Shown here in pieces: positions 574 through 29,500 of a stretch of 64,000 nucleotides of DNA. The translations under genes and the position numbers were made by a program. The notes under the pieces were generated by a model that searched no databases, was not told the DNA's origin, and saw only the letters and a list, made by a program, of their open reading frames with translations. The stretch spans positions 5,699 to 69,698 of the forward strand of contig CAYSEV010000001.1 in assembly GCA_964430295.1 (NCBI GenBank), written 5' to 3'. Source of the stretch: an uncultured Gammaproteobacteria bacterium. GTDB lineage: Bacteria; Patescibacteriota; Microgenomatia; UBA10105; UBA927. Numbering within the stretch: the stretch's first letter is position 1; each line of letters opens with the position of its first letter.

Positions 574-1659
574 ATGAAAAAAAACATACAGGTATTCATT
601 GATGATATCTACACGTGGAGAGACGGCTGGTACCACTATGCACAGCGCCATACACGAAAATTTGCCATGCGTTTTGAAACGCAAAAAGATGTAGTCGTTG
701 ATATACTCATGGCTCGCAGAGGCACGTATCAGCGGCCTTTCTTGCACTTGTCTCTTAGCCTCCTTTTGGTTGCCGGCGTCATTGGTGCACCAGTTATTGC
801 AAACGCATACCCGGGTGGATTGCCGAGCCAACTTGATGACTATACACCATCATCTGCCGTAGCGGTTTCACTTGATTTAAATGAATACGGTGTCCAAACA
901 CAAGTATCTGAAAAACCTCGGGATAAAGTTGAAACATATACAGTAAAAGATGGAGATACACTTGCCAAAGTTGCCGATACGTATGGCGTAAGTATTGATA
1001 CAATAAAGTGGGCAAGTGATCTAAAAAGAGATAGTTTGAGTATAGGTCAGGAACTTAAAATCCCTCCGGTTACAGGTGTTGTACACAAAGTCAGAGAAGG
1101 GGAAACTATACAAAGTATTGCGAAAAAATATCGCACAGATGCGCAGAAAATTGTTAACTTTCCGTTTAATGATTTCACCGATCTGGATACCTTTGCATTG
1201 AATGTGGGGCAGCTCGTTGTTGTTCCTGATGGTATACAGCCAGAGGCAGCACCAATCGCACCGTTCATACCACCTCCTCCGCAAATCGCCTCACTTGGGT
1301 CGGGAAAGCTGTTGTGGCCAACTTCCGGTGTAATTACCCAATACCCAATTTGGTATCATATGGCATACGATATTGCCAATCCTTCTATGCCAGGGGTTAC
1401 TGCTGCAGATAATGGTGTGGTCATTATTCCACCATTCATGCGCTATGGATACGGAAACCATGTCATTATTGATCATGGAGGTGGATTTTCGACATTGTAC
1501 GGGCATTTATCTGAAATCTATGTCAAAACAGGAGATCGTGTGGCACGTGGACAGGTTATTGGCCGAATGGGTACAACAGGTCGTTCAACCGGTACGCATT
1601 TGCATTTTGAAACACGGGTAAACGGCACTCCTGTAAATCCTGCAGGGTATTTTAAATAA
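574..1659 (+). CDS. LysM-LysM-M23 family metallo-endopeptidase (peptidoglycan hydrolase), with an N-terminal signal anchor.
   Basis: There is a hydrophobic anchor, PFLHLSLSLLLVAGVIGAPVIANA. Two LysM-like repeats follow (YTVKDGDTLAKVADTYGVSIDTIKW...GQELKIP and HKVREGETIQSIAKKYRTDAQKI...GQLVVVP). The C-terminus is an M23/LytM domain with the HxxxD motif (HMAYDI), a GYGNHVIIDHGGGFSTLYGHL core and the HxH motif (THLHFE). Confidence 0.85.
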   Translation: MKKNIQVFIDDIYTWRDGWYHYAQRHTRKFAMRFETQKDVVVDILMARRGTYQRPFLHLSLSLLLVAGVIGAPVIANAYPGGLPSQLDDYTPSSAVAVSLDLNEYGVQTQVSEKPRDKVETYTVKDGDTLAKVADTYGVSIDTIKWASDLKRDSLSIGQELKIPPVTGVVHKVREGETIQSIAKKYRTDAQKIVNFPFNDFTDLDTFALNVGQLVVVPDGIQPEAAPIAPFIPPPPQIASLGSGKLLWPTSGVITQYPIWYHMAYDIANPSMPGVTAADNGVVIIPPFMRYGYGNHVIIDHGGGFSTLYGHLSEIYVKTGDRVARGQVIGRMGTTGRSTGTHLHFETRVNGTPVNPAGYFK

Positions 1660-5500: not shown

Positions 5501-8500
5501 GGCTGTAGTAAATATGCGATGACACAGGCGTTTCTTGAAACAGGAGGGGCATATGGGGCCACATTGAAGGATGTTGACGTGCAGTATGCTTCCTATTTGG
5601 AATCAAAGTACGGTGCAGCGTCAGGTTCAGGTTCGTCTGGAATGGACCCTGCTGCTGAAAAATTAGCGAACGAGATATTAAATGCTCAAACAGCAGCCGC
5701 CAGAAACGCAATTATTGCAAATGCGGTTACTAACTGTGTTGCAAATGGTGGAGATAGGATTGCCTGTTCGAATGATATTCAGGGTTTTGCAAATAACGTG
5801 TTATATAGAGATAAAATTCTGGACGTAATGATCTCGGGTGATGCAGCAGCAAAGCAAAAATTGTGCCTTGAAATAAATCCGGGATCTTCGGGGAGTCGTG
5901 ATAATAATCCATGTTCACCTGAAAAAATAAATATAACCCTTTCATCAACATTGTCTGATTCCGATCCACTAAAGGTGCAGATCCGCTATGTGGAAGTTTC
6001 CACAGATGACGCAGCCCTTCGTCGTGTTTGTCCGACGTGTTTCAATAAAGACGGTACAGTGAACCAGACAGAAAAAAATAAATACCTTACAAAAATTACC
6101 ACTGCTGCAGGCTTAACAACAGAACAGGTTAAATCCCTCGAAACACAGGCTGCCGCTGTGCAAAACTACGAAACCGCCCTTAAGAAATCAGGACTTACGG
6201 AAGAACAGTTTAAAGCACAACAGGAAGCAGCTATGGCATACATGGCAGATAAGCTATCTGCAGGAAGTTATGCAGCATATGCACAGCAGGTAGCAAGCGG
6301 TGCCATACTCGCCACAGATGTTCAGAAAATGATAGAAAATGTGAACTCCTCCTGTGGAAAATTCCTTGGCATTAATTGGAAGGGCGGGTCAGACGGGTGT
6401 GCTGCAGCGAAGGATACGCTCATGTTGAATGCGTACAGCGACCAGGCAAAGGCGGAAATATTTGCCGGATATGATACATCCAACGCGTATAAGGATTACC
6501 TAAAATCGAAAGGACTTACACTGCAAACAGATTCGGAAGCAACCAAAGAACAGTTCTATCTGGATTCCATGAAAGCACTTGCAGACAACCATCAGTACAT
6601 GGTGAATGCAGATATATTGCGAGAAGGACAGAATGAAGCGGCGATTTTTGATCAAACCGCACGCGGGCAATTTGCAGCAATCACTTTGGATAAAGCTGTT
6701 GATGCCAATTTATCTCCAATGGGGCAATTCGGAATAACGGTTTACAAAGCAGTCGAATTCCTGAATCCTCAGACATGGACCGGCGGCGGGTATCATAACG
6801 ACGCGATAAATGCACAGTTCCTGCAGCAGCAGATGATAAACAACAATCCAACTGAGTATAAAACTATTCTGGATGGGTACTTAACTGATCCAGACTATCT
6901 AAAGGCAAAGAAAGACTATGAAACAAAAAATCCGGGTAAAACTCTAAGTACGCAGGAATATCAAAAAGACCTGCTGACGCAAGGTATGGCTATGGAGCGT
7001 GATGCGGAGCGAAGGGGTTTCCTCTGGCTGGATGTTACCGGAGATCGGTTGGATCTTGGAAAACCTGCCATGAATATGATCGCCGATGATTCCAAGTGGC
7101 TGGAGCAGGGGATTCTTCTTGGAAAAGTTAATCCAAACACGCTCAATACGGGTCTTGATACGATTAAGAACAATACTTCATTATCGGATGAAGCCAAAAA
7201 ACAACAGGCACAACAACTCGTCGGTGATATGTTTACATCTGCACTCGTACCGCAACAGTTGTCGGCATTAGACACAAGTGATGCATACAAAAATTACCTC
7301 ACTGCGAACAAACTAACAGATACGGAGGCTTCCCGAAAAGATTTCGTTGCCCAAAATGTGAAATCGTACATGGATTGTAAAGGATCATCATGGTATCAGA
7401 ACAGTTGTGATGATTATGCAAAAGTAAATGGAGAACAGTACACACTGGCTCAGGCTGTAACAGGTACAAAAGACTTTACCGGTATTAATAATGCGGTGGA
7501 GGGCTTACGAGATATGGGGGCAGGTACTTCCTTGTTGGTTAAGGTAAATTCCATGACGGGTGGAGATATGTCGAAAGGAAACGCAGAATCACTTGCTGCA
7601 ATGAATGAATTAACCGAGCGAAACCCAGTTCTGAAGAATTCAAAGTTCCTGCAGGGAGTTGCCAACGTCGTGTTACCGATTTATGAAGGTGCAACAAACC
7701 CCTTCAATTTACGTGGTATGGCAACCAACGCTGTCTTGGACGCAGTCGGTGTTCCAAACACATTTGATTCCAGAGGATGGGCATATTTTGAAAATCAGTA
7801 TCAGGGAAATGCCACAAAGGCATATATAAAACCCGCTGCGGCTGTATCCGTATTGGCTGCGCCGTTTGTAGCTCCTGCATTTAGTATCGTTGCGACACCA
7901 TTGGCATTAACTCAAACCACAATTAATTCTTACTTCATGCTCAACAGTTTCGGCAATATGAACAAAGCCTGTGTATCGGGATCGTTAACAAAAGAATGTG
8001 CTATGGCAGCAGGCAACAGTGCACTTATGACCGCATTTACATTCGGTGGCGCGATAATGGGAGACTATGCAACAGGTCAAAAACTTGCACAGGGAGAACA
8101 GGTATTAAACGCATCTCAGATGGCCAAACCGGGATACATAGAATCAGCAAAGGAATTGGCTACTAATTTTGTAAAGGCAGATGCAAACGGCGCATACACA
8201 GCCGCAGCCGCATCACAGCAGGCAGTGGGAAGAGCTGCTGCCGGATTCTTCACCTATCAGGCTATCGATACATGTAAAGCCAGTCCATGGTCAACTGAAT
8301 GTATAACATCAATCGGTATGGCCGGGTTAACAATCCCTGGTGCCTTAGGTATTCAGGGACTGGGAAGCTTTAAAGTGACCGAAGGGCTTAGTGCAGATAT
8401 AGGATTCACTGCACTCAATGCTGTTCAAATCGCTGAAGGGTGTATCAATCCAGATAAACGTTCGATGGACGCGTGTATCGCAGGACTTGGATTTACAGTA

Positions 8501-11500
8501 TTGGGACTTCATGAAACGCCGGTGACCGGAGGCGCAAATGCTGTAGAGGCAAAGCCTGAAGATCTGATCCCGCCCCCCGATGCATATGAACTTGCGAAAA
8601 CCAAGTATCTGGAAATGGTTGACGGCAACGGATTGCCTAAAAAAGGATTTACCGCGGAACAGGTAAAAACAGCAGAGACGGAGCTTAGAACTGCGTTGAC
8701 TCAAGAGGCGCAGAGGGTGGCGGCAAAGCAGCTTGCCGAAGAGTCTGTGGCAAATAAGTATGTGACGGCTGAACCTGCCAAGCCAGGTTTTATTGAATCT
8801 GTGAAGTCTCTCTTTACCAAGAAAACGTTTGTGGAAACATCCATTCAGTCAGATCTAGCCAAAGCAGCAGAGACAATGAAAGAAGCTGAAGCCAAGTACT
8901 TGGAAGCCAAAAAAGAAGCGGCAAAAACAGATACGACAAAAACACCGGAAGAACGGGCGGCTGACCTGCAAACGGCAAAGGAAGCATACGAAAAAGCGTA
9001 TGTTGACCTTGCAGGTAAAAACACACTGGCTATTCAGGAAAAATCTATTTACGATGGACCATCATTGGTTAAAAGAGTTACGGATTCAGTATTGGATCTT
9101 TTCAAAGGTAATCAGACTGAACGAAGCACGTTACAAAAAATGCAAGAGGAGGCTGCAAAGTTGGCCCGTGAATATCAGGCAGCGGATCCTGCCGCTAAAG
9201 AACAGCTGCATAATGACTATATTGAACAACTAGGCAACGTCCAAAAAGCACAGCAGGCATTAGACATCAGCAGACTTTCACCTGTGCAACAGGAGTTATA
9301 TAAGAAGATGGCTGCCGAAAAGCAGACGATTACGGATTTGCAAAAAAAGCTTGTCACAGAAGTTGCCTATAATGCGGAAAACACCACGCGTATTCAGGAG
9401 TTGGCTACGGAAATTGCCCAGCATAAGGTCACTCTCGCAAAAGCAGCGGCCGAAATGGCGATAGCAAAATCATTCGGTGGGCGGATCGCCGAACTGTTTG
9501 GGCAAACACAGTGGATCACTAATCGAGCGGCTCAGCAAACAGGTGCAGCACAAACGGAAGAAGCAAAGAAGAAACAGGAATTTAAAGCGTCACAGGCGGA
9601 AATTGAAAGCGCTCGAGATATCGTCAAACAGTATACAGAAGGGTTAAAAGCTGATAATCCGAGAGTATTGGAAATGCAGCGTGGACTCAATAAAGGTAGT
9701 GCAGAATTTACGAAAATACTGGAAGCAGAACGAACGGGTCTCACACCTGAGCAGGAAGCGACATGGAAGAAATCCATTATAGAAAATCAGGCAGAGCGTG
9801 ATGCATTGGCAGCCGGTGATCGCACTGCCGTTGAAAAAGCTATCTCTGATCGTTTTGAAGCACTCAAAGAGATCGAAGGTTTGACAGATTTAGAGAAATC
9901 GTACATTGAAAAACTAAGATCTTTGGAGGAACAAATAAGAAATAAAACAGTCGATACAAATCAGCTGATAAATGAGTTCAATAGAGCCCAAAAAGTTACC
10001 GAGTACAATAAGACACTTACAGATCTGCAAAAATCAATAGAAGCGCGATTGAAAGGTCCAGAGAATCTGCAACAAAGAGCTTCAGATTTGTTGAAAATCG
10101 TAAAAACTCTAAAACAAGTTGATTTGCTTGTAGATGTGCATACAGCAATCGGAGAAGGTAAGCCAGGTAAGGCTGCTTCTCTATTGCAGACAAAAGAATG
10201 GTCAATTCCCAAGGATATGGAGGGATTTACAGAACCCGGAATGAGCGAACAGTTTGAGTTTATCGTGCGCGATGTTGAGCATAGGCTTGCCGTTGATGAA
10301 GGTGGATTCAGAAGTCAGAGAGGCAATCAGGCAGATACAGTCCTCAAACTTATGCAGACGGACAGAATCGCCGTAGAGTTGACAACGAACGGAGTTAAAA
10401 CGACCATGGTAGGTTCAACAATCCTCAGAATGGAACTTGAGGTGTTTGAAAGGACTCCTGTGTTCGTAGCGAAAAAAGGCCAAACAGATGCTGTAAGAGA
10501 TATTATTAAAAAGTTAGTTCCAGAAGGGACAGATATTCAAATTGTTAAAGCAAGTGATTTAAATGGCACAGCAGGTGACGGTCGTGCTACTGCAATTGCG
10601 AATGCAGATATACTAATTATAGAACCGCATGAGGGAAACTTTATTCGCAATGCAAGCTTGGGCAAAGGTGAAAACGGCGCCAATATAGATGCAGCGACTA
10701 GAGTTTACAACAAGCTGACAAACGATGTTGCACTGTATGTTGATGAACTTCATCTGAATCTGGATATCAGCCAGCAGGGTATTAACCCGGTCGGCAATGA
10801 CTCCGCTCCGATTACAAAAGCACAGGCTGCGATAGCAAAAAGGACGGGAGACATTCTCAAAGACATGCAATTAATTGTCGAAAAGAACTTTGCGGAATGG
10901 GGTAAATACAATGGAAAAGACGGACTACTTCGGACAACAACACAGGCAGATGGAACGATCGTTTCCGATCCACGATTCTCAAGAGAAGTCGTAACTGAAT
11001 TCCTAAAGAGAATAGGCGAGTCTGAACGAATTCCGCAGGATATTATTGATACTATCCGCGACAGAGCTAGTGAATTTAAGAACCTATCGGAAAACGAAGT
11101 AGGAGTAAAACTGAAAGAACTGTTAGGAGAAAAAGCCTCAAGCAGTACTGTTGCCTCGTTAAGTGAGCAGGGCATAAAGGTGCTTGATTATATTGATTCT
11201 CTGAATACATTTGCCAATGGTATGGCGAGAACGTATGGTTCTGATTATCAGTACGCTATTGATGATGTAATCGCAAAGCAAAACGGAGGAGTTGAACGAA
11301 AGAGTGCCGTTCCTGCTTCAGGAGGAGATTTGAGTAAAGGCCAGGCGTTTGACTCAAAGATGATGCCTGCCATGGAATATCTAGCAGCGACAGCTGTGGG
11401 TGAGACCCCGAATTTTGAGGGGCTTAAGGCTACGCCAGAAAGTGCCTATAAATCCAGTGTTGCTGACTGGATGGGAGATCTTTCAAATGGGAGTGCTATC

Positions 11501-14500
11501 CGTGCAGTCACCGGCAATATGGCTGATGCAAAGGGTGTCGTTGAGACGGTCATGAGTCTCAAGACTGAATACTCTCCTGAAGCGGAATATAAGATATTTG
11601 GCTCACCAGACGGGTCAGTTGTAGGTCAACTAGCTAAGGAGCGATCATTTATCGTACGTAGTGACGCAGAGGCATCCAAGATGCTTTCCAAACTTATCGA
11701 GTCTAAACTGCTTGATACAACGATGGGTAATACTTCCAATGGCAATCTAAAAATTACTTTAGCCCACAAAGGCGCATGGGATCCGATTAAATTATTCCAG
11801 GATCAGGTATTAAGTAGGACTCAGGGAAATGATCCTGTATTAACCAATAAAACTGTACACGTGGCAGTTGGAGAAGGAAAGTTTGCGGAATTGCGAATCA
11901 ACGCGGAAGGAAGACTAGAAGGACTGGATGCGTCAGGAAAACCGACCGGCACGATTCGTACGACCGCAGAGGTTGAAAATATCTTTAAGAGCGGTAATGC
12001 AAAAGATACGATCGTTGTCATTGATGAAGGTGGTCACACAGGAACGACCATTCTTACTGAAAATGTGCCTGGTATTACTGTTGGCAACAGTAAAATTACG
12101 CTCGGAGACCTTATTCAAGGTGTGAGTCGAGGTAATCGAGGAAACAGTTTATCTGATCAATACCTTATTTATATAGACGAAGCTGCTCCAGTTATCGACT
12201 TTACTAAACCTGGGCGCGAAGTTGTCGACTCAACAAAGATGACGGATGAACAGTTTGCAAAAGTGCATGAAAATGCTCAGAGAGAACAGGTAGTAGCTGA
12301 AAAGTTAAAGACAACAAACGCTCTGAATCTAGCTGTGGAAGCGGCGAGTAAGCGGCCAATATCCGATGCTATTCGGGCACTTCGCAATGCAAACACTTCG
12401 AATGATCCTGTGTTAAAGAATTTGGCGGACTGGATGTCTGACACGCTTTTGGATTTTGGTACCAGATCAAAGAATCGTGATTTGAGACTTGAACAGGGTG
12501 AAGCCCAAACAACACTCGAAGCCCGACAGGAAATGATACAGCGGGAAGCGGCAAAGTGGGATGCATTCCTGAAAGATCCGGCTAATGCGTCTCAATTGAA
12601 AGCCCTCAAGGAAATTCTGCCTGACATAGTTGCACGTATGGAGGAAAACCGTGATGTGTTTGCCAACGGTGCAAAATTGTCCTATGCCGAGAATCCTGAG
12701 CCGATGTGGAAGACGCTGGCACGTCCTGAATTCAAAGAGACATGGGATGCTATGGTGAAGAAAATTCCGGAATTGGCAAACTTTGATCCGGCGGGCACTA
12801 CATGGAATGCACTCTTTGAGCCGGCAAATCGAGTCTTACTTGATAAAGTACGGGTAGATTTCCCGGAAGAATTTAAGCGATTCGGTTCCAATGAACCATC
12901 TAAAGATCCGGTATTGTTCGCCAAAGATCTGAAGGAATTAGTGTTGCGTCATGAAAGCTCTATTAAAGCTGATCAGGAAAGTAAGTATACAGCTAAAGAT
13001 TCTAAGGTGGATGTCAAAGATTACGTAAATGTGGCAGAACACCTGAGTACCAGCCAGAAGATTGGTGTCACGGTATTGGATGCGTTGGGTAATATGTTAC
13101 CGGGAAGTCTCGGCCTTCCGTTCCAAAACTGGTCAGCATCTATTAAGTATGGTGTACGCCAGACGGCAGCAGAAAAGTTACGTGAGGAACAGGATGCCGC
13201 TGCCTCAACCATTCCTGTGCCAAATTACAGCACAACTCAAAGTAGAGCTGCACTGATCGATGCGGCAAAGAAGCCGGATGCAACGGTTGTGGATAAAGCC
13301 CTCGGGCTTATTGCATTGGCTAAACAATACCAAGCAGCAAAAGATAATTTAGATAAAGCAGTCAACCCTGTCCGTGGAGTAGAAATAAAAGCAGGAGATA
13401 AACTTGGTAGTTCTATTCAACCTAACGCGGCTATTAAGGTCGAAGATTGGCGCATTATACGTGTAGATTCATCCGGAAATGTAACTTCTGTTGATCCGCT
13501 TATCGGCGCGACTATTAAGGATGGAGATATAATTATCAGTAATGTAGAATATGAAGCGAAAAAAGATAAACTCATCGGAAATAATCTTGAGACAGCAAAG
13601 AAAGTTGATGGAGTTGTCTATAGTATCGTTCCAACGATTGCTACAGTGATCAGAGTTGGTAAAGCAGATGCATTACCTGTTACTACCGTATCGAATAACT
13701 CATCAGAGGCTCTGTTTGCTGCCAATAAAGCGAAAGAAGAATTCCAGGCTCAGCTAGAAGTAGCAGAGAAAGATATCGCCCTGCGAATTGCAAATGAGTA
13801 TGGAATTATTGTGGCTAATGTTCCATCAGAACATCAGAACACAGTATCAACAGCGCTTCAGGATATAGCCGTGTATGAGGCACAGGTGATTTCTGCAGTC
13901 GCAATTGATCGTACTGTTGATGTAAATACTGTGCCTGAAGTTAAAACCGCGAAAACTGATGCAATTGCTTCACTGGACGCGTTGAAAACCGTCCTTTCGG
14001 ATGCGGATAAAGCAATACTACAGGGCAAAACATCTGAGCAGATTATAGAATCTCTTACATCGGCTGTGATTGCAAAAGCCAGAACAGCTTTGACTCCTAC
14101 AACGACAAAGACAACCGCGACGATACAGAGTGGATCATGGTTTACCAATGCTATAAAGAACAGTTGGAACTGGGCTCGCAGTCCTGAAAATATGGGTGCC
14201 CGCATCTTTAAGACTGTCGTCGTCATTAGTGCCTATATGCTTGCCGCTGGCGTTGCAATCTGGGTGGTCGGAAGTGTTATCGGATGGGCAGCCCCATTGA
14301 TTGGATCCCTATTTGCAGGAAGCACAGCAACAGGAGCCGCGGCAGCAACTGGGGCAGCGGCAACAACCACCACGGCTGCGGCTGCAACTACGGGTTCATC
14401 AGGATTGCTTGGATGGTTGATAACGACCAATCCGTTGCTCAACGTATTTAAGATCATGTTTGCGCTCTCATTCCTTGTTATGAGCTATTACAACATTATA

Positions 14501-17500
14501 AGTCCTGCTTCGCTTCGTAAAAATGAAGATGCAGTAGGTAAATTTGCCAGAACATACATATTTGCACCAAACCCGTTCAATCAAACATTATCACGAGGTC
14601 AAAAATGGGCATCAGCTCCAATGTTTATCGGCAGATATGTTGTTATAGCCGGTAGTCCACTGATGTGGCCGTTGGCTGTAATGGATATGGCAAATATATG
14701 GAATGAATATAGACTTTCACACGGTCAACCCACGTGGACGCAGCAACCGAATGCTCCGGAATGGTTAAAAAATGGAATGCGCAATGCAGTACAGCCGGAT
14801 GCTCTATATGGAGAAAATATCGAAAAGGGGAATGGGAGTAGATGGGGTGCGGTAGTCCATTTTGCAGCAGGGTTATCCGGTGCATTCATGCATGCAGTCT
14901 GGGGACCGGTTGCAATGCCATTTATGGCATATGATGTACTGACTGCATCAGCATCGAGATATCCACAGAGCAAAATTGTTGGATATCTAAAAGATGGGTT
15001 ATTCCCGGCTCCATGGAAGTCAGGACAGACAGGCATTCTCAATATTGGCTATTACGTAGCAACGCGTTGGCTACTATTTACTAATCCATTTACAGCACCG
15101 ATTGGAATACCTGTTCTTATTCATGATGCCTTCAGATTTTTAAATGATTTTGTAAATCAGGAAGTTGCCGGACAAATCCGACAACCAAATATAGATGCTG
15201 CAATTGCGTATACACAAGCCGAATTAGATAAGCAGGTTGCATTATATGAAAAGACTAAGTCTGATTTGGAAGCCGCTAAGAAATCGTACGCAGATTTGGT
15301 GGAAAAATCGAACAGTGGTAAGGCACGTGCAAAGGAGCTGCAAGAATTGATTCGAAAAGCCAGAATCTCTCTCTCTGCATCTGAAGCTAGATTGACACAA
15401 TCAACTGAGAGGCTGAATCAAGCAAAAAATACTGTAAATGCATTGAATCAACAAAAGACTCAAAAAACGTCGAAACAGGATCTGCAAACCGGATACGGTC
15501 TAGTCTCTGTTGCCTCCACTGAACTTATCGGTCGTGATTCTTCTCTCGGAAATATTCAAGGAAGCAGAGTATCGCGCAGACACGCATTAGTGTATCGGGA
15601 TCGTGCCACAAATGTGCTGGGAATCTCTGATTATAACTCAAGCAACGGGACATATGTAAATGGAGAACTGCTATCAGGCTATCTGGAACTGCAATTAGGA
15701 GATATTGTTACACTCGGTAAATTACGAGAACCTGAAAGTGCTGTATTGACGGTAAAATTACTTAATGGAGTGTTGGAGTTAGTAGATAGTCATGGAAAAA
15801 CAGTCAAAGGTAAGGCTATTAGTGCTCCGCCAGTAACTTCTGCATCAGATGCAGTAGTAAAATCAACAGTTTCTAGAAAGACTCCACTTGAAACCATATC
15901 AACTGGAGAAGCTAACTCTTTGAAAAACAGAATAACTATATCTGGCGATGAATTTAGAGGGAAAAAACTTACGGTAAATGAATTATATAAACAAAAACTA
16001 CAGCCTAAATACAGTATTCAAATTGACGGAACACAATATTACCTATCCGATTTATATGACATAGGTCAAGGCAGGCTGGCAGGCGTTGTCTATGTAGAAA
16101 TTGACGGTGTGTTTCACGCAAGATCATTCTATAGAAGTAATTCTTCAGCTGTATGGCGCTATTTGCCGGGATACGCTTCTGATGATGATGAAATTACCTG
16201 GTATTCGAAGGCATATGGTGAGGAAGGTATTAACGCTCCAATTACACTACAACAAGCATTAAGTAGATTACAACAGGACGGATCTCTAGTTCGCCCTGCT
16301 GACGATCAATTTATATTTGCTGGCCTTGCCCAAAGGCGAAGAGTCTCATCGACCTGGCTCATTAATATGAGGGAACAACCGGAAATGCTGAATATATCAT
16401 ACTCACGAAAAGATGCAGATAAACTTGCTGATCCGGAAAGTATGAAGTTCACAAATCCTGATGATGCTCCGGATTTTGGATCATTCCTAACAAGTTGGGA
16501 AGAGGACACTGCTCTATACGGAAAGATTACAAAAGATGCATTTTTATCTAAAAATAAAAAATATACATATGTCTTTTATCGCGATGAAGAGGGTAGAGCA
16601 GGCATAGCTTTTGTAGAAAATCAATCAGAAATTGTATCTCAGGGTATACGCCAACAAGCAGTTATAATTGGTGATTTAGCAACGCCTATATTTGAATATG
16701 ATTCACAAGCAGGCGGATATGGAAATGCCAAAATTCGCAGAGGACATTATGTGGATATGTATGCGAACTACCTAAGTAAAATACCAGTGATTCAGGAATA
16801 CCAATCATTCGTGAAACAAGGTGTCCGAAAAATAGCAAAGGTAGAGTCAATAACAGCAGAAGAAGCTGATCGTTTGTCAGAAGAAATTAGAAATGCATCT
16901 ACCGCAATGGAAGATGCACGAAGAGTTACGGTTTCTGATGCGAAACAGGTTACGCAATACAGAGAACAACTAGCGGTACTCCTCAATGAATTGGAATTGT
17001 TGGTTTCACAGGAAGGAGATGTTAAAGCTTCTTACGATGCCATCGTTTCGGGTAACGATGAAATTAAAAAAATTCAGGAAAAGATTGATCATTTGGAAAC
17101 AAAACTGGAAGCCCTTACAAACTGGAATCAGGCGAAGAAAAATCTTCTTGCTGCAAAACCACAAGCACAAATTGAGTGGATTGACCTGTTAACTGCACCG
17201 ACAGAAGAAATCATCCGAAGTATGAATAAGATGATTACACAATCGGCATCTGTGCCATCAAGCTCTCAGGTATTGGAAGCCTTGAGAGATAAGGATAATG
17301 ATGGAAAATCCGGCATAGAGCGAGTATCAGCGGCCGGAGGATACGTTGCTGTTTACACTGCACTTCAAAGCGCAAAAGCGTCAAATAGACAGGCCGATAT
17401 AGATATTGTTATGACAACACTTCGCACTGCTGCCGCAGAGCGATTGGAAAAAATAACCGGAAAAGCTATCGATCTGAACTCAAAAGAAGGGAAACGGATG

Positions 17501-20500
17501 ATAGAGGAGGCAATTTCCTATGAGCTTTCAATGTTTGCAGGAGAAAAACAATCAACAAAAGTGACCGATGCCACGGCTCCAAATAAAATAACTGCGGCAA
17601 TCAGTAAGTTCTGGCACAGTTTGCCACGTCCAGGGAAAATATTTGCCAGCCTTGGCCTGGGCATAGTCACGGTGTCTCTTATCACCACAATGCTTTCATC
17701 AACCGGATCCAGAGCTCCGCCTGTAGATACAGCACCACCTCAGACTCAAGTTGTACAGATGGTAGAACAGTCTCCGGTCCAGGCATTAGACCAGGTATAT
17801 CAGGAATCAGATCAACAATATGTATACACACAGGTAGCACAGGCTCCACAAGCTTCAGATCATGCATCGTCTCCACCCGTGATTACAAATACAAATCAAC
17901 AAGGAGGATTGACCGCTCAACAGCAGGACCAACTCATAAATGTGTCGATGGAGTTTGTAACAGATTCAGGAAGTGAGACAACACAGAGATCAGCGGAACT
18001 TCTGGGATTAAAACAACAGGATGGCAGTGTGATATGTGGTCCACTAAGTGCAACAATACTGCAAAAAGCCGGTTTATTGGATGCATCTGTTGATCCAATC
18101 GATTTCTATCAGGCAAATGACTGGACAAGCCAAGAATCCAAAGTAGGTACACTCTGGTATCTGCAAAAAACGTTCCCGACAGATAAATATGATTGGGTTG
18201 AATCACAACAATCGATTGGGGAGTATGATTTCAAGGCAAATCCACTACAGCCGGGAGATCTGCTCTATTTGAAAGGTGGAAACTTCACTCATTGGATCAC
18301 CATTTCACGCGTAGATAGTAGGGGTAGAGTATATGCAGTAACGAATATACAAAAAGGATTTATTACAGGTAATCCAAATGATTCCGAATGGCTTATACAA
18401 GAAGTGTTAGTGTATGATCCTGCAAACCCGCAGCTTGGACAGTTTGCAAAATGGACAGGGAATGATTATCCACAACTTGGAAAAACAGGGCTGAAAGGAT
18501 TCAGGCTTTGGAGGGCAAAGGGAACTACACAGGCACCAGTCAGTAGTACAAATACGGGGTCAAATACAACAACACAACAATCTCAGTCTACAAATTCAAA
18601 TGCCGCTACAAACAACAATAACCGTGTATCGGATTATTCCGCTTATAGTGTAAGGGCAGATGCTGCAATCAACGCAGTGCCATATGAAGGAATTCCTCAG
18701 GCTCGCTATGATCAAATGTTGGCGGATGGTGTTCTTTCAGATGATGAAGTGCGTGAAATGTATGAAATGTACTATAAGCCAATGCCTGCAGAATTTGTAT
18801 CTACAGGCACATTATACGGACCGCTCGCTAACGCAATCGGTGAATTGCATTGGTATGGAAATGCAATGCGCCAACAAATGGCCAGAGGGTTTGTACTTTT
18901 TGGCAATAATTCATATGGATATAGAGAAGATTTGGCAGATGAGCTGAAAAATTATGATGGTCCGTATGGGTCAACTCTCGGTGATAGGACAAATATATTA
19001 TTACAAAATCAGGCATCACCTCTTTATACTGTTCTTGCTGATCGGGTACGTACACCGGATAATCAGCCGGTTCCGTTGGAGTATAACGATCTCAACGAAC
19101 GACAGAAGTTAATCTACGACATGACCTCAATGGGACAGGATGAAACTGCAAAGAAATACTTCGTGAGTATAGAAGAACAGTCACAAATGACACCTGAAGA
19201 AGCATTGGCATCAGGCAAGTTTATAGGAATTGTATCATCCAAATCTCCAAATGACTTTGGTCGAAGATATATGCTGTGGAAATATGACGAAACCACAAAA
19301 CAAAAGAAATTTATTGGAATCGTCGTAGTCGCAGGTGAAGCAAAGCGTGGAGATTGGGTTCCGGATCAATCAGGTGATCCAACTTTTAATACGTATCCGC
19401 TTGGTCTTCGGGTGCAAAACGGGCAATCATGGGGATTTGATTTGACGACAAATGTGTACGAAGCGTTTGGTGGGACAGGGGGTCCAGTGTTTGATATCGT
19501 TGCAGTTGACCCTGACGGTCCGCTTACGACTAGAATGGAGCGTGTTGCAACAACAGAAAGTGTACAACCAACGTCATTAGCTCAGCCGTCAACATCAGGT
19601 CAAACATCTAATACATCTGCGCCACAATCGGCAACTGTACAGCAGACATCTCAGGTTGCTACACCTGGTCAGACATATGAAGTCGCATACGATACGTCAG
19701 TCCCCGAGAAGTATACAGTAGGAGCCTCAACCGCAAGGAGTGAGGCGGCTCCAAATGGCGGCATCCTTCTTACAGATCATGACCAGTGGTTGCCGATTGC
19801 TGAAAGTGATATTCCTGCATCTGCACAACTGCGTAATCCGCAGAGTTATATAAATACCATCAGATATTTCCACGTCACAGAATCTATACGATACAAAGCT
19901 GCAAGTAATACCACATACTGCAATATATTTGTATCGGATGTCACACGTGCCATGGGAGTAGAGATTCCGAAGTGGATTAATGGTGAAGGAACGTATGCGA
20001 ATTTCTTGTATGACTGGCTGGCAAATCCAAGCGAAGGCGGCAAAGCAGGATGGGTAGAAGTAAGCGCACAAGATGCGCAGGCATGGGCGGATAAAGGATA
20101 CCCTGTCGTGGCCTCCGCCCAATTTGAAGGGCACGGTCATATTGCTATGGTTATACCCGGGACGCCGGCGGACGGATTTATCCACAACGGTGAATATTAT
20201 CCAAACAGTGCGCAGGCAGGGCGGATAAATTTTGAAGGAAAGAGCACATATGAAGGATTCCATAGAGGATTGGAGCAAAATCAAGGACATCCTATCAAAT
20301 ACTTTGTGAACACGGGCAAAACTGTAAATATATACAAATCTGCTGCCGGTATCATCCCGATCGGGCTGGTTGGACTATGGGAAAAAGCAAAACAGGGAAT
20401 GGGCTTAACCAAACATACGGGTAATCCGGAAGATGAAGAAGTTGTAGAGACTGCCGGACCACAGGGTGCAGATGCAAAACTCGAAGAATCCATTACGGCA

Positions 20501-23500
20501 TATCTGGATGCGCACGATCCGGAAGGGTATACGCGTATATATGATTATTCCAATGCCCCAGAAGGAAATAGAAAACATCTGATTGCACAGTATATCATCG
20601 ACAAATTGTATGAGCAGGTACAGACTGATTCAAATGAACGCGGGGTATTTGCATCGGCAATGGGCGCATCAGGAGGCAATATACAGCCACGTATAACCGT
20701 TATAATTGACGATGTTAATAACATAAAAGAAGGTGCAGCGATAACAGTCAGGTATAGTGACGGTTCTGAAGTAAAAAGCAAAATAGTTCAGAAAATACCG
20801 GGTAAATCTACAGGTCAAGATTATTGGTTAATAAACAGTAAAGACGAACTATTTGCAGTGCCGACAATAGCCATACTGACGAGAGCAGCGGCAGATGCGC
20901 AACGAGACAATAAATCAGCAACAAATCAGCAGGGCACATCAGGTTCAAATGCAGTGAAGACTGAATCGGACGCAGTTAACAAAGCAAATGCTGATGTTCT
21001 GGCAGCCAAAAGTGAGTTTGAGAAAGCACACCAGGAATCTGAAAAGGCACGTATTGCAGCTGAATCTGTAACAACTTCCACAGTAGATCCGCAACTTCTC
21101 AAGGTCGCTCAGACGAATATGGCTGATGCACTTGGTGAGCTGAAAGTTGCAGAAGCAGATCTGACACAAAATAGAGAAATGGCTGATCATTACAGACAAA
21201 AACTTGAGCAGTTGAGAATACAACAAACGCTTCAAGAGCACACAACCGACGAAATGGCTATATTATCTCTCGGTTCTCCAATTACAAGAACTGATACCAC
21301 ATATGTCGTTGATGATGAATCATATGACGAATCATACGCTATTGAAGCCCAAGATGGTGAGTTTTTTGGAGAATTTGGAGCATCAGTTCGTGAAATTATC
21401 GGCATAGGCTCACCGAAGAAATTTGGTGCTATTGAAGTCTGGCTATTTGATAAAAATGATATAAAAACAAAAACAATTTTCCTTGTATCGGAGTATGCAT
21501 TTAACGATCCTGAAATCCGTTCACGATTAGAACAACTGGGAGAAGTAGTGCAGATTCAGACTGGTCCAACGGGCATATCCGTCATACGAACAAAAGATTT
21601 ACAGTTACACATATTTGTAAAGGATTTCGTGTACAGCAAAGGTGGGCCACAGGCAGATGTAAGCACGTTTGATAGAGTAACAGTTCAGTTAGAAGCATAT
21701 GCGAATGACGTTTCCACATTTGCAGGTCCTGTGGATATGCCCCAAATCGAAAAAGACATACTGGAAGCACAACAGCAATATACTGCATGGTCTGAAAAAG
21801 CGCGTCTTTCTCAAGAGGATGTCGCAAGACGCCTGGCGGCATACACAGAAGCGAAAAGGATTCTTAAGCAACTGGAAGAATCAGCAGAAACCGTTGCAGA
21901 TATGGCTGCATACGAATCAGCAAAAACCCGGGAAAATGAGGCAAAAGCACGCTTTGAAAAAGCACAATCTCATGCAGATGTATTGGCTGACTGGCAGAAA
22001 GCAAAAAATGAAATGCATGTGCTTAATCCAAAAGCGACCGTTGAACCGATAGATCTAAATACCGCAGATGATGGGGCTATAGTTGCTAATACTGCGCTGA
22101 TGCGTGCTGTTGAGCCTGTTATAGTGGCCGAGGCATCAACGCTTTATGACATGGATATCAAGAGAATCGGGCGTGTAAAGGTCGCTCTTCTATGGATTGA
22201 ATTCCTCAAAAAGTATCCAAACCAGATAACGACAGAACATAGAGTTCGCCTGTATCAGGGACTTGTAGCCGCACAAAAAGGACTTGCTGCAAAAGATGAT
22301 CTGATTTCAGCAGCGGATAAGACACTCATCGAAGAAGTACTTGCAAATGACGTTATCATACGCATTCGTGACGGATTTGGTGTCGGATCTACGCCGATCA
22401 ACACGCCGATGATGAAGACATTTGCATTGGATCTCATGGCATATGAGCAATCCGTTTTTGAAACCGGAAAACTAAATACAGATACAGAGAAAAAACTGAA
22501 AAAGCAAATAGCAGATATACTAGACAGTAAGTCGACAATTTCTGACAGTCTTCTTGCTACACTACCGAGCCGTGATCCAGAAGTGATTTGGAAGAAGATT
22601 ACAGACGGATTATTTAATGCAGCAATAGCAAATGGATCAACAAATGGGAATAAAAACCAGAATAACCCTGCTGCGAATACTTCATCAGTAACACCTGCAT
22701 CTGGAACATCAGGACAATCTACATGGCTATCAAGGCTGTGGGACAGGTCATCAAATTGGGTAAAATCCGGGAGTAATTTGGGCGAAAAGATCTTTAGAGG
22801 AATAGTTGTTGGTTCTATTTGGGTCACAGCTGCTGTAGCTTCAGCTTTTCTGATTACAGTTGTCTTTAATTCTGTTATGTTGTTGATCCCATGGTATGCC
22901 GGGTTGATCAGTTCTGCACACGTTTCATATTCATTGCTTGCATGGATAATTCCATCATTATTCATGCTCTCTGGATTATTGAATTTATCTGCGCCTCCGA
23001 TTATGCCACCAACGAATGCATCAGTTGTAGCGAGAGTGTGGCATGCTGTTCGCAATCCGTATCCTTGGCAGAACGGATTAACAAAAGAACAAAAACCTTA
23101 TGTATGGGGTGCCTTTGTTGGGAGATATGTGTTGGCAGGGATAATTAACCCAATGGAAATAGGCATGGGTCTTGTTGACCTAACAAACGGCATAAATCAC
23201 ATGGTGCGCCCTGCGATTGCACCTCAAACAGTTGAACCCAATAATACTGCTGTTGAACCGTCAGCATTCAGAAAATGGATCAATAAACCAACTTCACCTG
23301 CATTTTTGTCTAAAACAATACGATTCCTTGTTAATCCGCGATTTAGAGCAGATGACCCAGAGAAGCGGACAGGGAGTAGCTGGGGATACGTTCCCCATGG
23401 TGTAGGATTGCTAGGTATTTTCAGAGTATTCCAGACACCGATGGCTGCAACAATCGCGATTCCATTTGTGGCCCATGATGTCTATAACCTGCTGCGCAAC

Positions 23501-26500
23501 GACAAACCGACAGGCTTTTGGGCTACTGTTGGTGACTATTTCCTTTTCCCGACATTCTGGCAAAAGAATACGATGACAACAGGTCAGAGGTGGTTATCTT
23601 TTGCAGGCTGGGTTGTCTCTAGAGGATTCCTCCTATTAAATCCGACTACGCCATATTTTGGATATACTTTGATAGCTCAGGATATACTTCGTATGACAAA
23701 TGATTTCCTTGCTGCCAAGTGGGCATTCCAAGGGAAAGATCTGACTGTAGCACCCACCACAACAGGAGCCGGTGCACCACCACCAAAAGAAGAAGATCTG
23801 ACAGTGTCAGGTAAAAAGACAATTGGCAAACAGGATGTACAGACCAATAGTAAACTCCTTGCCATTGTGACGAATGCTGAGAACAAAGGATTGAAAGTTA
23901 TTGAGTACACAGTAAAGGCAAAAGACGCAGGCGTAAAAGATCAACGAATATGGGTGGTAGAGGGTGCAGGCGTAACCCCAATAACCAACGAATATATCAT
24001 AAAACTGGCAGCACAGCGAAATAGCATCACCGCCAAAGCCGGGTTCCCCGGACCAGGAAAATATGTTGATGCATTGTCACAAGAAGCTATTACTCAGGGG
24101 ACTGCAGAGTTATCTGCGGTTGGAGATAGGCAGATAGTGCAGGAAGAAGCAGCAATATCATCAATGAGTGATGGAAGCAAACTCGGTATTCACTATGCTG
24201 CAGATGTTGCACAATACACAGATGAAAATCTACATATACCAGATAATGAGTTACTTGATCTTAGTATTGTTGTTCATGCGAAAGACCAAACAGGTGTCTT
24301 GGCACTTCTTGGAAATGTGTACGGTGGTCAGTGGATGAGTAAAAATGACTATTTTGCAAAATGGGCAAAAGAAGAAGGAATCGTTACCCCATTACCAAAA
24401 AATATCGTTACGTATAAAGCATTTATAACATGGTATGAGACACAGGCAGTGTTTACCAGTGGCGCATATTCATCACAAAATGGCAAACTGTTTGTAAATG
24501 GTACTCCAACACAGCAGGTTATTGCACCGGATGGCAAACCGATCACAGATCTGTATAAATTCCGCCATCTTCAAGGTGATTTTTATATGATCAGTGCAGA
24601 GAATGCGCATGGAATCTTCAAGATTAATGGAACAAAAGCAGAGTTGATTGTGGCAGCGCACAACAATAATTTCCACGATGATGTGACACAAGCCGGATGG
24701 ATTACATTTGACAAAGAAGTAGATGTGAAACAGGCAAGTGTACTTCCATATGTAGATGGCAGTGCACTCTTTAACGCGCAAACAGGCAATCATGTTCAGA
24801 TCAGCTCTCTGAAGAATTTTGAACGAACAGGGGCATATATGCTCAAGAGCGAAACGATTGATCCGAGTGAACGATATGTTGTATTTATCCAGAGCAATAA
24901 TAAGGATGCAACCGCAAAAATCGGTATTATCGATCTACAGAATTTGGATGCAGGAATTGTGTATTCTGGTCAACTTACCGGCCATGTATCAGATATAGAA
25001 TTTATCGATGGAAACACCATTGCGGTGTCTGAATACGGAAAAGAAAAGGGAAGAATAGATCTATCTGCCACGTTGGGTGGCAATAAAACAATACTTCCTG
25101 GTGTTGTAAAACCAGTATCAGCACCGAATGTATACGATTCAGAAGGGCGAAATATTAAAGTGGGCGATACCATAGAGTACAAAGATAATAGCGGAGCGAA
25201 GAAGGCTGTGGTACAGGGCTTTACAAAAACTGGCCAAATCATCTTCATGGAGCTTAATAGCACAGATGGGAATAAAGCGAAGATTGCTCAGGGAGATATA
25301 GTAGCAAGAGGTGTGAAGGTTGTGTCTCCAGATTCCTCTTCTCCAAGACCTCAGCCAATTCCTGCTGTTGGAGTTAAACAAAAATTGACCACAAAAGGAA
25401 AGATTACTCCAGGAAAAGATACACTTCAGGTATATGCGGAGAATAAATCGACTAATAGTAATGTAGATACCTCAAAAGCCCGTGTCAGTTGGAATGTGCC
25501 TTCTACGCTTGCCAATATAACATATGGCTACGCAGTAACGAATAACCGTGGCGGAATATTTGTGAACGGAGAGCTTCAAACAGGAATAAATAACCCTATT
25601 CAAAAAAAGAGTGAATTCAAAAAAACAAGTCTAACATTCGGTACTGCAACTCCAAGTGACACACGGCCTGTTTTGGATGTCTATGCAGTATTTGAAGATG
25701 GGGATATGCGCTACTATGTACCGCTATCTGAACTGGAAAATGCTGAGCTTGCAGTGCCAATAGGACCGACGAAAACAGTAGATCAAATTATTCAAGAATT
25801 GGATGCAATTTTAGCTACAACCGTATCCGAAGAAAATTTGGAAATAATGCAACAAAGTGGAGAAGCGGCATCCGATCTTATATCCCAGCTTACAGAGAAT
25901 GGATTTTATTGGGTAGAAAGTCAAAGAGATATCGTGACTTTGAATGCAACGAGAGAAAAATTAATTAAACTTAAACCATACTTCCAAAAAACTAAAAGAC
26001 TGGAAGATTTTAATACTATGATCGCAGCTATTGATGGGCTTTTAGAACTTGCTAAAGCATCACCTCAGGAAGTGCGGAATGCTGAAGCCGTAGCGAAGCT
26101 TCAGGAGGAAATCAATGCCTCCTTTGATGAAATCATCAACAATGGCATCTCTTTGGATTCTATTAATGTATTCAGGATTATAATTGCCCAGACTATAAAA
26201 AATGCCAGAGCCCTTGAAGGATTAACAGAAACTGCATTGAATCATTACAGTAATAATCTGACTGTATTGGAGAAATTACGCGATGTGATCATGAAAATGG
26301 TACCTTCTCTATCCGTGATGAATGAAATTGCTGAGATTCAGGACCTCATAGATCAATTAGACCTTCTTATTGAAGCCGCCAAGAAGACTTCACATACACC
26401 TATTGGCACATCAGAAGCAGAGATTCTAGCAGCACTGCAGAATGTGCAAAAAACAGCGATATCAGAATTTAAGGCAAATAATATAGAAGATATGCAACGG

Positions 26501-29500
26501 GATTTGGCTGATCAACGGGTAGATGTAATGGAATTAGTTATTGCAAGCATCACAATGTATCCGACTGATACAGAATATCTAAAAGAAGTTGCGAAGATAT
26601 TTGATGCATTGAAGCCGGGATATGAACATACCTGGAGCGCTTGGACATATAATGATGTGTATAAAGCATTACATGAAGCGATAGATCATCCAAGTTCATC
26701 ACCAACTATACCGAGTGGATTTAAAATTGCGCAGTATCTGGGTCAACAGCAACAGCAATTATTAGCTCAGCTTGGATTGCTTGGTGATGTCAGTATTCTT
26801 CCCGTAGGTGGTAAAACAGTACAAAATGCGTTAGCTGCTGCAACAAACACAACAGAAGCATTTGTTCAGTTAGCAGAGAGAATATTTAATGAACACCAGG
26901 CAAATAGAACATTGTTAACTGCTTTATCTGAATCTATAGCTTCAGTTAACCCTGCATTTAATCTGGTCTGGCGATGGAATGCCCTGATTCGAATACAGGA
27001 GGAAATAGATAGGTTGTTAAAACAGCCTGTACAGCCAACTGGGGCAATTACATATGAAGTCTCTAAACAGCGTATGTCAGCACCACTTGAGAGTGCTTCT
27101 GACTTGAAAGCCGGCGATTATTTCCAAAGAAAAGTAAAGAGCGGTTGGGAATCATTCCAATTAAAGCAAAGCGCAGATGGATCGTACTATACGGTTGAAT
27201 TCAAACCTGATGGGACTATTAAGCGCATAAAGGCTGTCTCTGATCCAACATCATGGGGTTTTGTCAAAGAAAATTATCGACGGTTTGATCCTATACAAAT
27301 AATGACGACGGCAAAGAACATGTTAACTGATTTATATACATATGGTGAAGCATATGATGCGAATAACGCTGAAATAGTCAAAACAGTACTTGAAGAAATT
27401 AAAGAAATGCTTGGAGGAGAGGCTACTCTCGAACCGATGAAGACACAAATCGGCATATTGGAGGCAGTGATAGCCGGCGGACGCCCGACAAAAACGACGA
27501 CTCCGCCTATATTGATAGCTACGGTTGAAGAAGCAACGAAACAATTAAATGAACTCTTCTTAGATGGAGCATCGTATCTTCCTGCTAATGTTGGAAGAGT
27601 CAAAGCCTCTGTTGATTCTATTCGGACTGCGCTTGCAAATACACCAGTCTCACAAACTGTAACAGATCAGTTGTTGGCACTGGATACGGTTATTCAACGA
27701 AATCTGCCTGCGGAAGAAAAACCTGTAATTGATCCAAATTTGCACGCTCGACCACAGACAGAACAAGGTATAACTCAACCTGTTCTGGATCCGGCTAAGC
27801 AGCCACAGGAAGCCCAAATGGCAAAAACGCAGGTATTTACTACTCAAAATACGCAAATTGCAGTCAATGAAGGAAGTCAACAAGGTAATAAACTAATAAA
27901 CTCCTATGGGACACCAGAATTATTCCTCGCAGTAGATCAAAAGGATTTGAACTCATACAATCCATCTCAATACACAGGATTACGAGTCCAATTGAAGTGG
28001 GATACGCCAAAATTAGCAGGAAAATTGGCTAAATTTGGTCGCGCTACCGTTCTGGCAGAAGGTAAAGGACAAAACGGAGATTTTGCTAGCAGATATGCAA
28101 TCGGAAGGTTCTATGAATTATTCTATGGTCTTAATGGTCAAGTGTTTGCTGAGAATGTAACAGATGTACCATCCAGAATTCGTCAAATTATTTCCCAGAT
28201 AGATATCGAACTTGCATATATAAATAAACAACACAATACACAGGCAGAAACGACGTTGTCAGTGGCCTTAGAATTCAATGGAAAACTATTCACTGCCTGG
28301 GTTGGAAATTCTAGTATCTACGTAACACGCAATGGAAGCATACACCTGTTAAGTGCTCCAAATGATATGGTTTTGGGAAGTTCAGTGGAAGGGCGAGACA
28401 CAGAATTTATCCATACAAGCGATACATTAGCTGCGGATTTGAAAACAAAAGCCCAAAGGGCTAGAAACAACGGATATCCACTGGCAGCAATTGTTGAAGA
28501 CTGGGCAAATAGTGTAGATACCGCTGTGAACCTTCAACAAGGTGACCAGATTGCTCTTATGACGTATGGAGTAGATGATTTGAACGTAGCACAAAATGCT
28601 ACCGCAGTAGATCCAATTGCATCATTAATCAACGGATTAACAGGTCAAAAGCCTGCTGAAGCTGTCATTGATAGGGCTATTTCAGAAGCTGCTATTCGAA
28701 ACGTGCAAACGCCTCCAATGACAACAATCATATATACAGTAGGTACTTCGGAAAGTGTACAGCCAGTTGCCGTCAAGTCTCTTACAACACTCAGGCAAGA
28801 GCGGGATGCTGAAGTGGATCAAATAATTCAGAACATAGAAAAAGGAGAGGTTTCCCCAGATGCAGATGCCATAATTTCCGATTTGAAATCACGACTGTCT
28901 GAACGCATTGTTCTTCCTGTTGTACAGCAAAACAGAATACGAGCGGCAGCAGCACGTAAGAAGGCTTCCAATGAACGAGAACAGGCATGGAAAGCAGTAT
29001 TATCAACAGATTTGACGGCAGCTGTGACTGATCTGACACAGGCAGGAATTGAGGATTTCTGGGCAAATGCATATGAAGCACTGGGTACAGCAGGTCGGAT
29101 ATTCCCTGAGGTTGAAGTAGCGCCAGAGGAAAGCGCCCAAAAAACAGCACAACCGGTTACAGTCGTTGAGATACGGGATATTATCCAAAAAACATCGCTC
29201 AAAGAACTGCGCAGACAACGGGATGAAGTACTCATTCCGGCTGCAATCAAGTCACTTGCAAATGGGAAATATACCGCGGGTGTAGGCAACATCATCAAAT
29301 CAATTGAAGAAAAGCTAGGCGGCAAAGTAACGGTCACTCGGGCTCAACGTGCAAAACTAAATGGAGCAGCGGCTCGTGGTGAAGCGATCTGGGCATATGA
29401 GAATTTGCTTACACAAGCGTCTCACTGGAGAGGGGCTCCGACAATAGAGATTGCAAACGCAACTATCCAGCAAATCAGATCTGCCATAAAGCAACTCGAG

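Follow-up and report, generated by a model that had tools for sequence, protein, structure and literature searches.

A conserved domain between two Cys-His domains, forming a probably peptidoglycan-directed cassette inside a 14,241-residue bacterial membrane protein

What does a bacterium do with a protein of 14,241 amino acids (aa) in which almost nothing can be annotated? The question is raised by a 64,000-nucleotide stretch of DNA (the window, by which we mean the whole stretch that was analysed) from a bacterium deposited as an uncultured member of the Gammaproteobacteria and placed by GTDB in the Patescibacteriota (Microgenomatia; UBA10105; UBA927; assembly GCA_964430295.1, contig CAYSEV010000001.1, positions 5,699 to 69,698). 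A single giant open reading frame (ORF) fills two thirds of the window, and the sole domain of its product to pass a Pfam threshold is an FHA domain. A preliminary description of the sequence had singled out two segments of this protein, each with a cysteine followed at a distance by a histidine, and had read them as CHAP- or NlpC/P60-like domains with cell-wall amidase or endopeptidase activity. Here we examine the two segments, termed D1 and D2, together with a conserved domain of ~290 aa that lies between them and was overlooked at the time, termed Dmid (coordinates in Table 1). D2 is well supported as a hydrolase of the peptidoglycan peptide stem, on the evidence of sequence and structural model, and the three domains as a whole form a cassette that is probably directed at peptidoglycan and tethered to the membrane, providing a testable biochemical handle on a protein that is otherwise nearly free of annotation.

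Could two such motifs simply be accidents of a very long sequence? All four strings on which the proposal was based are present in the plus-strand frame of the giant ORF: ICGPLS (aa 5151, nucleotide (nt) 18032) and PGDLLYLKGGNFTHWITI (aa 5224, nt 18251) in D1, and YCNIFVSDV (aa 5779, nt 19916) and GHGHIAMVIPG (aa 5850, nt 20129) in D2. The key codons lie at 18035-18037 (C5152) and 18290-18292 (H5237) in D1 and at 19919-19921 (C5780) and 20138-20140 (H5853) in D2, where the conserved histidine of ‘GHGH’ is the second one; the Cys-His spacing of 80-90 residues claimed for both thus holds for D1 (85) and fails for D2 (73). By itself the pattern would prove little, since a loose regular expression of the motif found one match each, against 0.05 and 0.16 expected in shuffled sequences, which is a mild enrichment. 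Both residues are, however, invariant in every aligned homologue (49 sequences for the D1 family, 21 for the D2 family), and the giant protein is strikingly poor in cysteine. Of its 69 cysteines 30 are packed into residues 1-720, almost all the rest stand two by two at short distances, as disulfide partners would (727/746, 811/831, ..., 13753/13772), and across ~9,300 residues (aa 1966-11265) there are exactly two, C5152 and C5780. Furthermore, the closest relative, a giant ORF fragment of 3,445 aa from a metagenome (L091), contains a single cysteine, the equivalent of the putative D1 nucleophile C5152. Because the residues are invariant, because they include the sole cysteines of a cysteine-poor stretch and because L091 has retained just one, the Cys-His observation lies far beyond chance.

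To which family D2 belongs was less accurately foreseen. The close match to the CHAP consensus that had been asserted for it was not recovered: D2 has no match at E<=10 to either CHAP (PF05257) or NlpC/P60 (PF00877), nothing was found for it in Pfam or NCBIfam, and none of 21 D2-family members matched PF00877 at E<=1. Its nearest relative is instead the Tae1/Tse1 branch of the NlpC/P60 superfamily. A single-sequence search of PDB sequences gave weak matches to Tse1 (E ~0.3), in which C30 and H91 of Tse1 align with C5780 and H5853, and a family profile made from 20 homologues matched Tse1 and no other PDB family (E 0.005). In Tse1 these two residues are the catalytic dyad, and the enzyme cleaves the bond between gamma-D-glutamate and meso-diaminopimelate (gamma-D-Glu-mDAP; PMC3391265). 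An AlphaFold2 model of a 237-residue segment, with a predicted local distance difference test score (pLDDT) above 90 over most of residues 70-200, has the cysteine beginning a helix and the histidine beginning a strand, and superposes on Tse1 at 2.0 Å; together with the aligned Cys and His, this superposition implies that the dyad residues are close to one another. Thus the fold that characterises the papain-like/NlpC-P60 superfamily, with Cys at a helix N-terminus and His carried on an antiparallel sheet, is found here, and the papain-like arrangement proposed earlier for both segments is borne out by the models, with His on a strand in D2 and on a hairpin in D1. By analogy with Tse1, the bond most likely to be targeted by D2 is that between gamma-D-Glu and the diamino acid.

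The family around D2 reaches beyond its nearest characterised relative. In 185,579 reference genomes that were scanned, 94 loci belonged to the D2 family, the best with 46% identity to D2, and these were distributed among Myxococcota (Archangium, Myxococcus, Pyxidicoccus, Hyalangium), Christensenellales, Oscillospiraceae and other Bacillota, Acidobacteriota, Nitrospirota and Chloroflexota. Tse1/Tae1 of Pseudomonas aeruginosa is a free, single-domain effector of ~150 aa of the type VI secretion system, encoded beside its immunity gene (Tai1); D2 conserves the catalytic residues and shows significant similarity in sequence or structure, the sequence match being borderline, whereas it lies in the interior of a membrane protein of 14,241 aa, and members of its family, unlike Tse1/Tae1, frequently carry LysM, PG_binding_1 or glycosidase modules in the same chain. 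Eight of nine multi-domain D2-family proteins tested were joined to LysM, PG_binding_1, Glucosaminidase, SLT, GH19 or GH46-like modules, while the D2 region itself stays unannotated in them, and the family has conserved motifs of its own (YCNIFxxDVTRAM, AQAG). The Tse1/Tae1 branch of NlpC/P60 amidases thereby reaches past type VI effectors, taking in one giant membrane protein as well as multi-domain lysins from Myxococcota, Bacillota and Acidobacteriota. The closest standalone homologues of D2 (166-178 aa; L082 2956-3456, L083 3090-3626) sit in packed, same-strand arrays of small unannotated ORFs with a phage-like look. A phage-endolysin origin, prompted by these contexts, stays unconfirmed: no PHROG matched any of the three domains, the small standalone homologues or the proteins encoded around them, relatives of D2 are scarce in viruses (two identical GenBank phage records and one IMG/VR locus), and none of D1 or Dmid was found among GenBank phage and IMG/VR sequences.

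What, then, is D1? It is no duplicate of D2, to which it has no detectable relation (hhalign probability 0.2%), and the two giant ORFs of the window contain no further copy of either domain. A papain fold with a Cys-His dyad is supported by alignment and by the AlphaFold2 model (pLDDT 85.5), in which Cys stands at a helix N-terminus and His opens a beta-hairpin; N5255 and D5245 are candidates for the third catalytic residue, the former preferred because of the hairpin geometry of the model. Residues invariant across the 49 aligned family members include C5152, G5225-D5226, H5237, R5243, D5245 and N5255. Membership of the CHAP or NlpC/P60 families is, on profile searches, not supported. The only direct Pfam signal for D1 is a CHAP match of 14.2-14.6 bits (E 0.05-0.06) against a gathering cut-off of 26; NlpC/P60 gave no match at E<=10 for D1 itself and none at E<=1 among the 49 members. 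In 47 of these 49 there are sub-threshold matches to Amidase_6 (PF12671; best E 2.7e-4; ~18 bits in two individually tabulated members against a cut-off of 23.2 bits), spanning only profile positions 98-143 of 163, the ‘PGD...H’ region, and absent from the D1 of the window. Amidase_6 is a putative amidase family of the same clan as CHAP (Peptidase_CA). Searches of PDB sequences with D1 as a single sequence and with two profiles returned noise only, and a Foldseek search of PDB structures, without a match at E<=1e-3, placed CHAP lysins a little below C39 domains and papain-like toxins, in a neighbourhood where those lysins are mixed with C39, C58 and C70 proteases.

The D1 family comprises at least 867 proteins at E<=0.01. 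The best 120 matches are mostly small proteins of ~300 aa that begin with a hydrophobic, transmembrane-like segment followed by a Pro/Thr-rich linker; none of these 120 has a precomputed Pfam domain, and those with a named source come from Chloroflexota/Anaerolineales. In three Anaerolineales genomes (L086, L088, L090; ~5001-6540) a chromosomal standalone D1-family gene is followed by a gene for a HAD-family hydrolase, which overlaps it in two of the three loci, and a polyprenyl synthetase gene comes next, again in two of three. These genes may form a conserved operon; the Anaerolineales loci have no toxin-immunity or phage signature, and the neighbourhood offers no decisive functional clue. 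A wall substrate for D1 is suggested by the domains with which it co-occurs, and for D1 taken alone we give peptidoglycan a slight preference as its target. The amidase or endopeptidase activity first proposed for both segments therefore stands on firmer ground for D2, through its likeness to Tse1, than for D1.

The company kept by these domains is best seen from Dmid. When 1.84 billion representatives were searched exhaustively with HMMER, Dmid homologues formed 48 clusters, 16 of them at E<1e-30, either as standalone proteins of ~330 aa or as parts of proteins of 2,034-7,661 aa; a pattern of Asp residues is conserved in its C-terminal half, which raised the idea of a double-psi-beta-barrel or ‘3D’-like lytic domain, a reading not adopted here, and no relative was found in Pfam, PHROGs or PDB (noise only, with single sequence and profile alike). 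In P0165 (4,007 aa) the order of domains is GGDEF, then, further on, Amidase_2, a D1-family domain (E 1.7e-23), Dmid and CHAP; in P0156 (2,034 aa) Dmid precedes a D1-family domain (E 4.5e-29) and a CHAP-like domain; P0142 (3,013 aa) has Dmid and a weak CHAP match, P0174 (868 aa) a D2-family domain (E 9.5e-33) and then Dmid, and P0143 Dmid followed by an NAGPA phosphodiester glycosidase. The metagenomic relative L091 (JGI Ga0182021_10001297), an ORF open over all 10.3 kb and thus at least 3,445 aa long, is homologous to aa 4876-6030 of the window's protein and 50% identical to it in both D1 and Dmid. It runs from a transmembrane (TM) helix through a Pro/Thr/Gln-rich linker, Dmid, a second linker and D1 to a later TM helix, so that Dmid here comes before D1, and D2 is absent, while the plan of a TM helix, a linker and then the domains is shared with the window's protein; the comparison shows that domains have been shuffled among homologous giant proteins. 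Metagenomes scanned with the D1-D2 block gave no match. Because of the recurrent partners of Dmid, D1-Dmid-D2 can be regarded as one arrangement of a cassette whose parts are shuffled and in which Dmid stands beside Cys-His wall hydrolases.

On which side of the membrane would such a cassette lie? A simple hydropathy scan (Kyte-Doolittle) predicts about eight hydrophobic TM-like segments in the giant protein, strong at aa 46, 3879, 5020, 6751, 13063 and 13190 and weaker at 1752 and 10901. FHA domains, which bind phosphothreonine, are normally cytoplasmic, and the one in the giant protein is taken here as the marker of a cytoplasmic segment. One clear predicted helix (aa 5020-5038), with a basic flank (HSLPRPGK) on its N-terminal side, separates the FHA domain from D1, and the match envelope of the D1-family profile extends back over this helix to aa 5018, just as the small members of the family have a membrane anchor. 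Each domain is preceded by a linker rich in S/T/Q/N, of ~88 residues for D1, ~39 for Dmid and ~77 for D2. Because the helix parts FHA from D1, because the relatives of D1 have N-terminal anchors and because hydrophobic segments flank the region, the most economical reading is that aa ~5040-6740 form an extracytoplasmic loop bearing all three domains, and the paired, disulfide-like cysteines elsewhere in the protein count in its favour. Dmid-bearing relatives also carry cytoplasmic signalling domains, namely GGDEF in P0165 (Pfam), an FHA-like segment in P0180 (7,661 aa), where a region separate from Dmid aligns by BLAST with the FHA region of the window, and, by eye only, kinase and PP2C motifs in P0180. 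Such architectures hint that signalling may be coupled to external modules.

From these parts a mechanism can be proposed. A loop held between two membrane helices would carry D1, Dmid and D2 on flexible linkers. In D2 the thiolate of C5780, positioned at the helix N-terminus and activated by H5853, would attack an amide of the peptidoglycan peptide stem, by analogy the Tse1 bond; D1, as a second and unrelated Cys-His(-Asn/Asp) hydrolase (C5152/H5237), would most likely cut another wall-peptide bond; and Dmid would act as an accessory wall-directed module, either in binding and recognition or with a third activity. Tethered in this way, the domains would most likely work close by, on the sacculus of the producer itself, where they could open or remodel the wall that surrounds a huge surface protein, possibly in partnership with the LysM-M23 protein encoded upstream; the wall of a tightly attached partner cell is a serious alternative target. 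Remodelling of the producer's own sacculus is favoured because the enzymes would be tethered and because the small relatives of D1 look like housekeeping proteins. A number of results pull the other way: the sequence match of D2 to Tse1 is borderline, neither D1 nor D2 reaches any Pfam or NCBIfam threshold, D1 lacks a close structural relative and Foldseek slightly favours C39, CdiA-CT and 9l5u over CHAP lysins for it (all at E>1e-3), and the topology is drawn from a simple hydropathy scan in which the number of helices is ambiguous near aa 3879-3950 and 6740-6770.

The fold of D1 would also suit a papain-like protease, leaving D2 alone to act on peptidoglycan. Scores equal to those of CHAP lysins were obtained for the C39 domains of ComA/PCAT1, for AvrPphB (C58), AvrRpt2 (C70) and CdiA-CT, and for the toxin 9l5u; the flexible linkers on either side of D1 are potential cleavage sites, and for the giant proteins of Omnitrophota cleavage by C39 and S8 domains has been put forward (bioRxiv 10.1101/2023.11.21.568195). 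Such a protease might process the giant protein, releasing a Dmid-D2 lytic module or other fragments, or might cleave the proteins of another cell; given the wall hydrolases that accompany D1, we think it improbable. A different challenge concerns the target rather than the chemistry, for the cassette could be an offensive weapon on the surface protein of a predator or episymbiont, aimed at the wall of attached prey or host. The nearest characterised relative of D2 is an interbacterial toxin, predatory Myxococcota often have D2-family domains within multi-domain lysins, a link between giant genes and predation has been drawn (bioRxiv 10.1101/2023.11.21.568195), and the first giant ORF is followed by a second, in which there is a weak lipase-like motif. 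Yet D1, Dmid and D2 occupy the interior of the protein, whereas the toxin domains of polymorphic toxins are C-terminal, predicted membrane helices enclose them, no immunity-like or secretion-system gene lies within the window, and D1-family genes in Anaerolineales occur in a housekeeping context, all of which makes a weapon doubtful.

A chance or relic origin of the motifs, with the domains serving as inactive binding scaffolds (pseudo-enzymes), is very improbable. Neither domain passes a Pfam threshold, and many NlpC/P60-like and M23-like domains are non-catalytic activators, both of which would suit such scaffolds; against this, Cys and His are invariant in both families, and the retention of the catalytic cysteine alone amid thousands of cysteine-free residues, here and in L091, is the opposite of what a degenerate site would leave. 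A wall-directed, membrane-tethered cassette remains the preferred explanation. Its most ambitious form, in which D1-Dmid-D2 is an undescribed, mobile ‘tethered wall-opening cassette’ of giant multi-pass surface proteins, is unlikely in all its parts together: it would have Dmid as what may be a new wall-active domain, with a catalytic or recognition fold of no described family, D1 as the possible founder of a new clan-CA family of at least 867 members with housekeeping roles in Chloroflexota, and the cytoplasmic FHA domain (kinase or GGDEF in relatives) as a device that may couple signalling within the cell to cleavage of the wall outside it.

How does the cassette compare with systems already described? 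Multi-domain peptidoglycan hydrolases and autolysins, such as lysins combining CHAP, Amidase_2/3 and glucosaminidase modules, likewise carry wall-cleaving modules of different specificity on flexible linkers, and P0165, with Amidase_2, D1, Dmid and CHAP in a row, is lysin-like in this respect. By comparison, the modules of the window would sit on an inner loop of a giant protein that crosses the membrane several times and has a cytoplasmic FHA domain as well; Pfam detected none of the canonical wall-binding repeats (LysM, SH3b, PG_binding) in that protein, and the middle domain is uncharacterised. A second likeness is to the giants of Omnitrophota and other bacteria, which are also very long, mostly unannotated and membrane-anchored, have enzymatic modules dispersed along their length and are proposed to act at the cell surface; this is a likeness by description (bioRxiv 10.1101/2023.11.21.568195). 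Giant proteins of these bacteria have been implicated in cell-wall degradation (bioRxiv 10.1101/2023.11.21.568195), and the preliminary description had appealed to reports that giant genes carry wall-degrading modules, but the giant-gene papers checked, that one included, mention neither Cys-His hydrolases of this kind nor NlpC/P60, amidase or CHAP-domain modules.

The chemistry and superfamily of the D1/D2 cassette are already well known. What is new is the pair of families without a Pfam, NCBIfam or PHROG match in these searches (D1 and Dmid), the recurrent association of D1, Dmid and D2 as a cassette in several very large proteins, and the occurrence of a Tse1-like domain outside the context of type VI effectors, within a giant multi-pass protein. 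D1-family and Dmid domains travel with known wall hydrolases and are candidates for curation as new families. Should the wall opened by the cassette be that of its producer, this would point to a way in which cells make room for enormous surface proteins or thread them through; an attack on partner cells would instead support the link between giant genes and predation.

Table 1. Positions of the cassette domains, predicted membrane segments and genes in the window
Feature	Protein position (aa)	Window position (nt)	Strand	Basis or remark
LysM + Peptidase_M23 gene (361 aa; DipM/NlpD/MepM-like)		574..1659	+	Pfam Peptidase_M23 E 4.8e-31, LysM E 1.2e-18
Giant ORF (14,241 aa), holds the D1-Dmid-D2 cassette		2582..45307	+	ORF list
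FHA domain	4316-4379	15527..15718	+	Pfam E 1e-11, 45.5 bits against cut-off 20.7
Predicted TM helix, IFASLGLGIVTVSLITTML	5020-5038	17639..17695	+	Kyte-Doolittle mean 2.06 over 19 residues
D1, papain-fold Cys-His domain of an unannotated family	5127-5317	17960..18532	+	C5152, H5237
Dmid, conserved ~290-aa domain between D1 and D2	5357-5653	18650..19540	+	Homologue clusters
D2, Tse1/Tae1-like domain of the NlpC/P60 superfamily	5731-5911	19772..20314	+	C5780, H5853
Hydrophobic segment closing the predicted loop C-terminally	6740-6769	22799..22888	+	19-mer at aa 6740; Kyte-Doolittle peak 2.33 at aa 6751
Second giant ORF (5,994 aa)		45494..63478		Begins 187 nt past the end of the first giant ORF
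YfhO-family membrane protein, C-terminal part		63479..63988	-	Pfam E 1.8e-8; convergent with the giant genes

The remaining gene content of the window is sparse, consisting of the LysM-M23 gene, the two giant ORFs and a YfhO fragment (Table 1). The LysM-M23 gene had been noted before and is confirmed by Pfam, lying ~0.9 kb upstream of the start of the giant ORF and ~16 kb from D1 and D2; its product has partial NCBIfam matches to DipM, MepM, NlpD and ShyA, all under the equivalog cut-offs, and no exact database record was found for it. The product of the second giant ORF has four N-terminal hydrophobic segments; the only domain signals in it are matches below threshold to alpha/beta-hydrolases or lipases, at aa 1843-1931 (LIDHydrolase E 7.5e-5, Lipase_3 E 1.4e-3), and, close to its C-terminus, a weak carboxypeptidase-propeptide-like match. 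YfhO proteins are tied to wall-polymer glycosylation in Bacillota, which would suit an envelope theme at this locus. In the first giant protein, aa ~75-720 (window 2800-4740), following the first hydrophobic helix, consist of Pro/Thr/Lys-rich repeats (TPxKTxTP) amid Cys-containing motifs, one of which, CNGGPSITPPWQATKTPT, is present twice, and from its sequence this region looks like a repetitive stalk.

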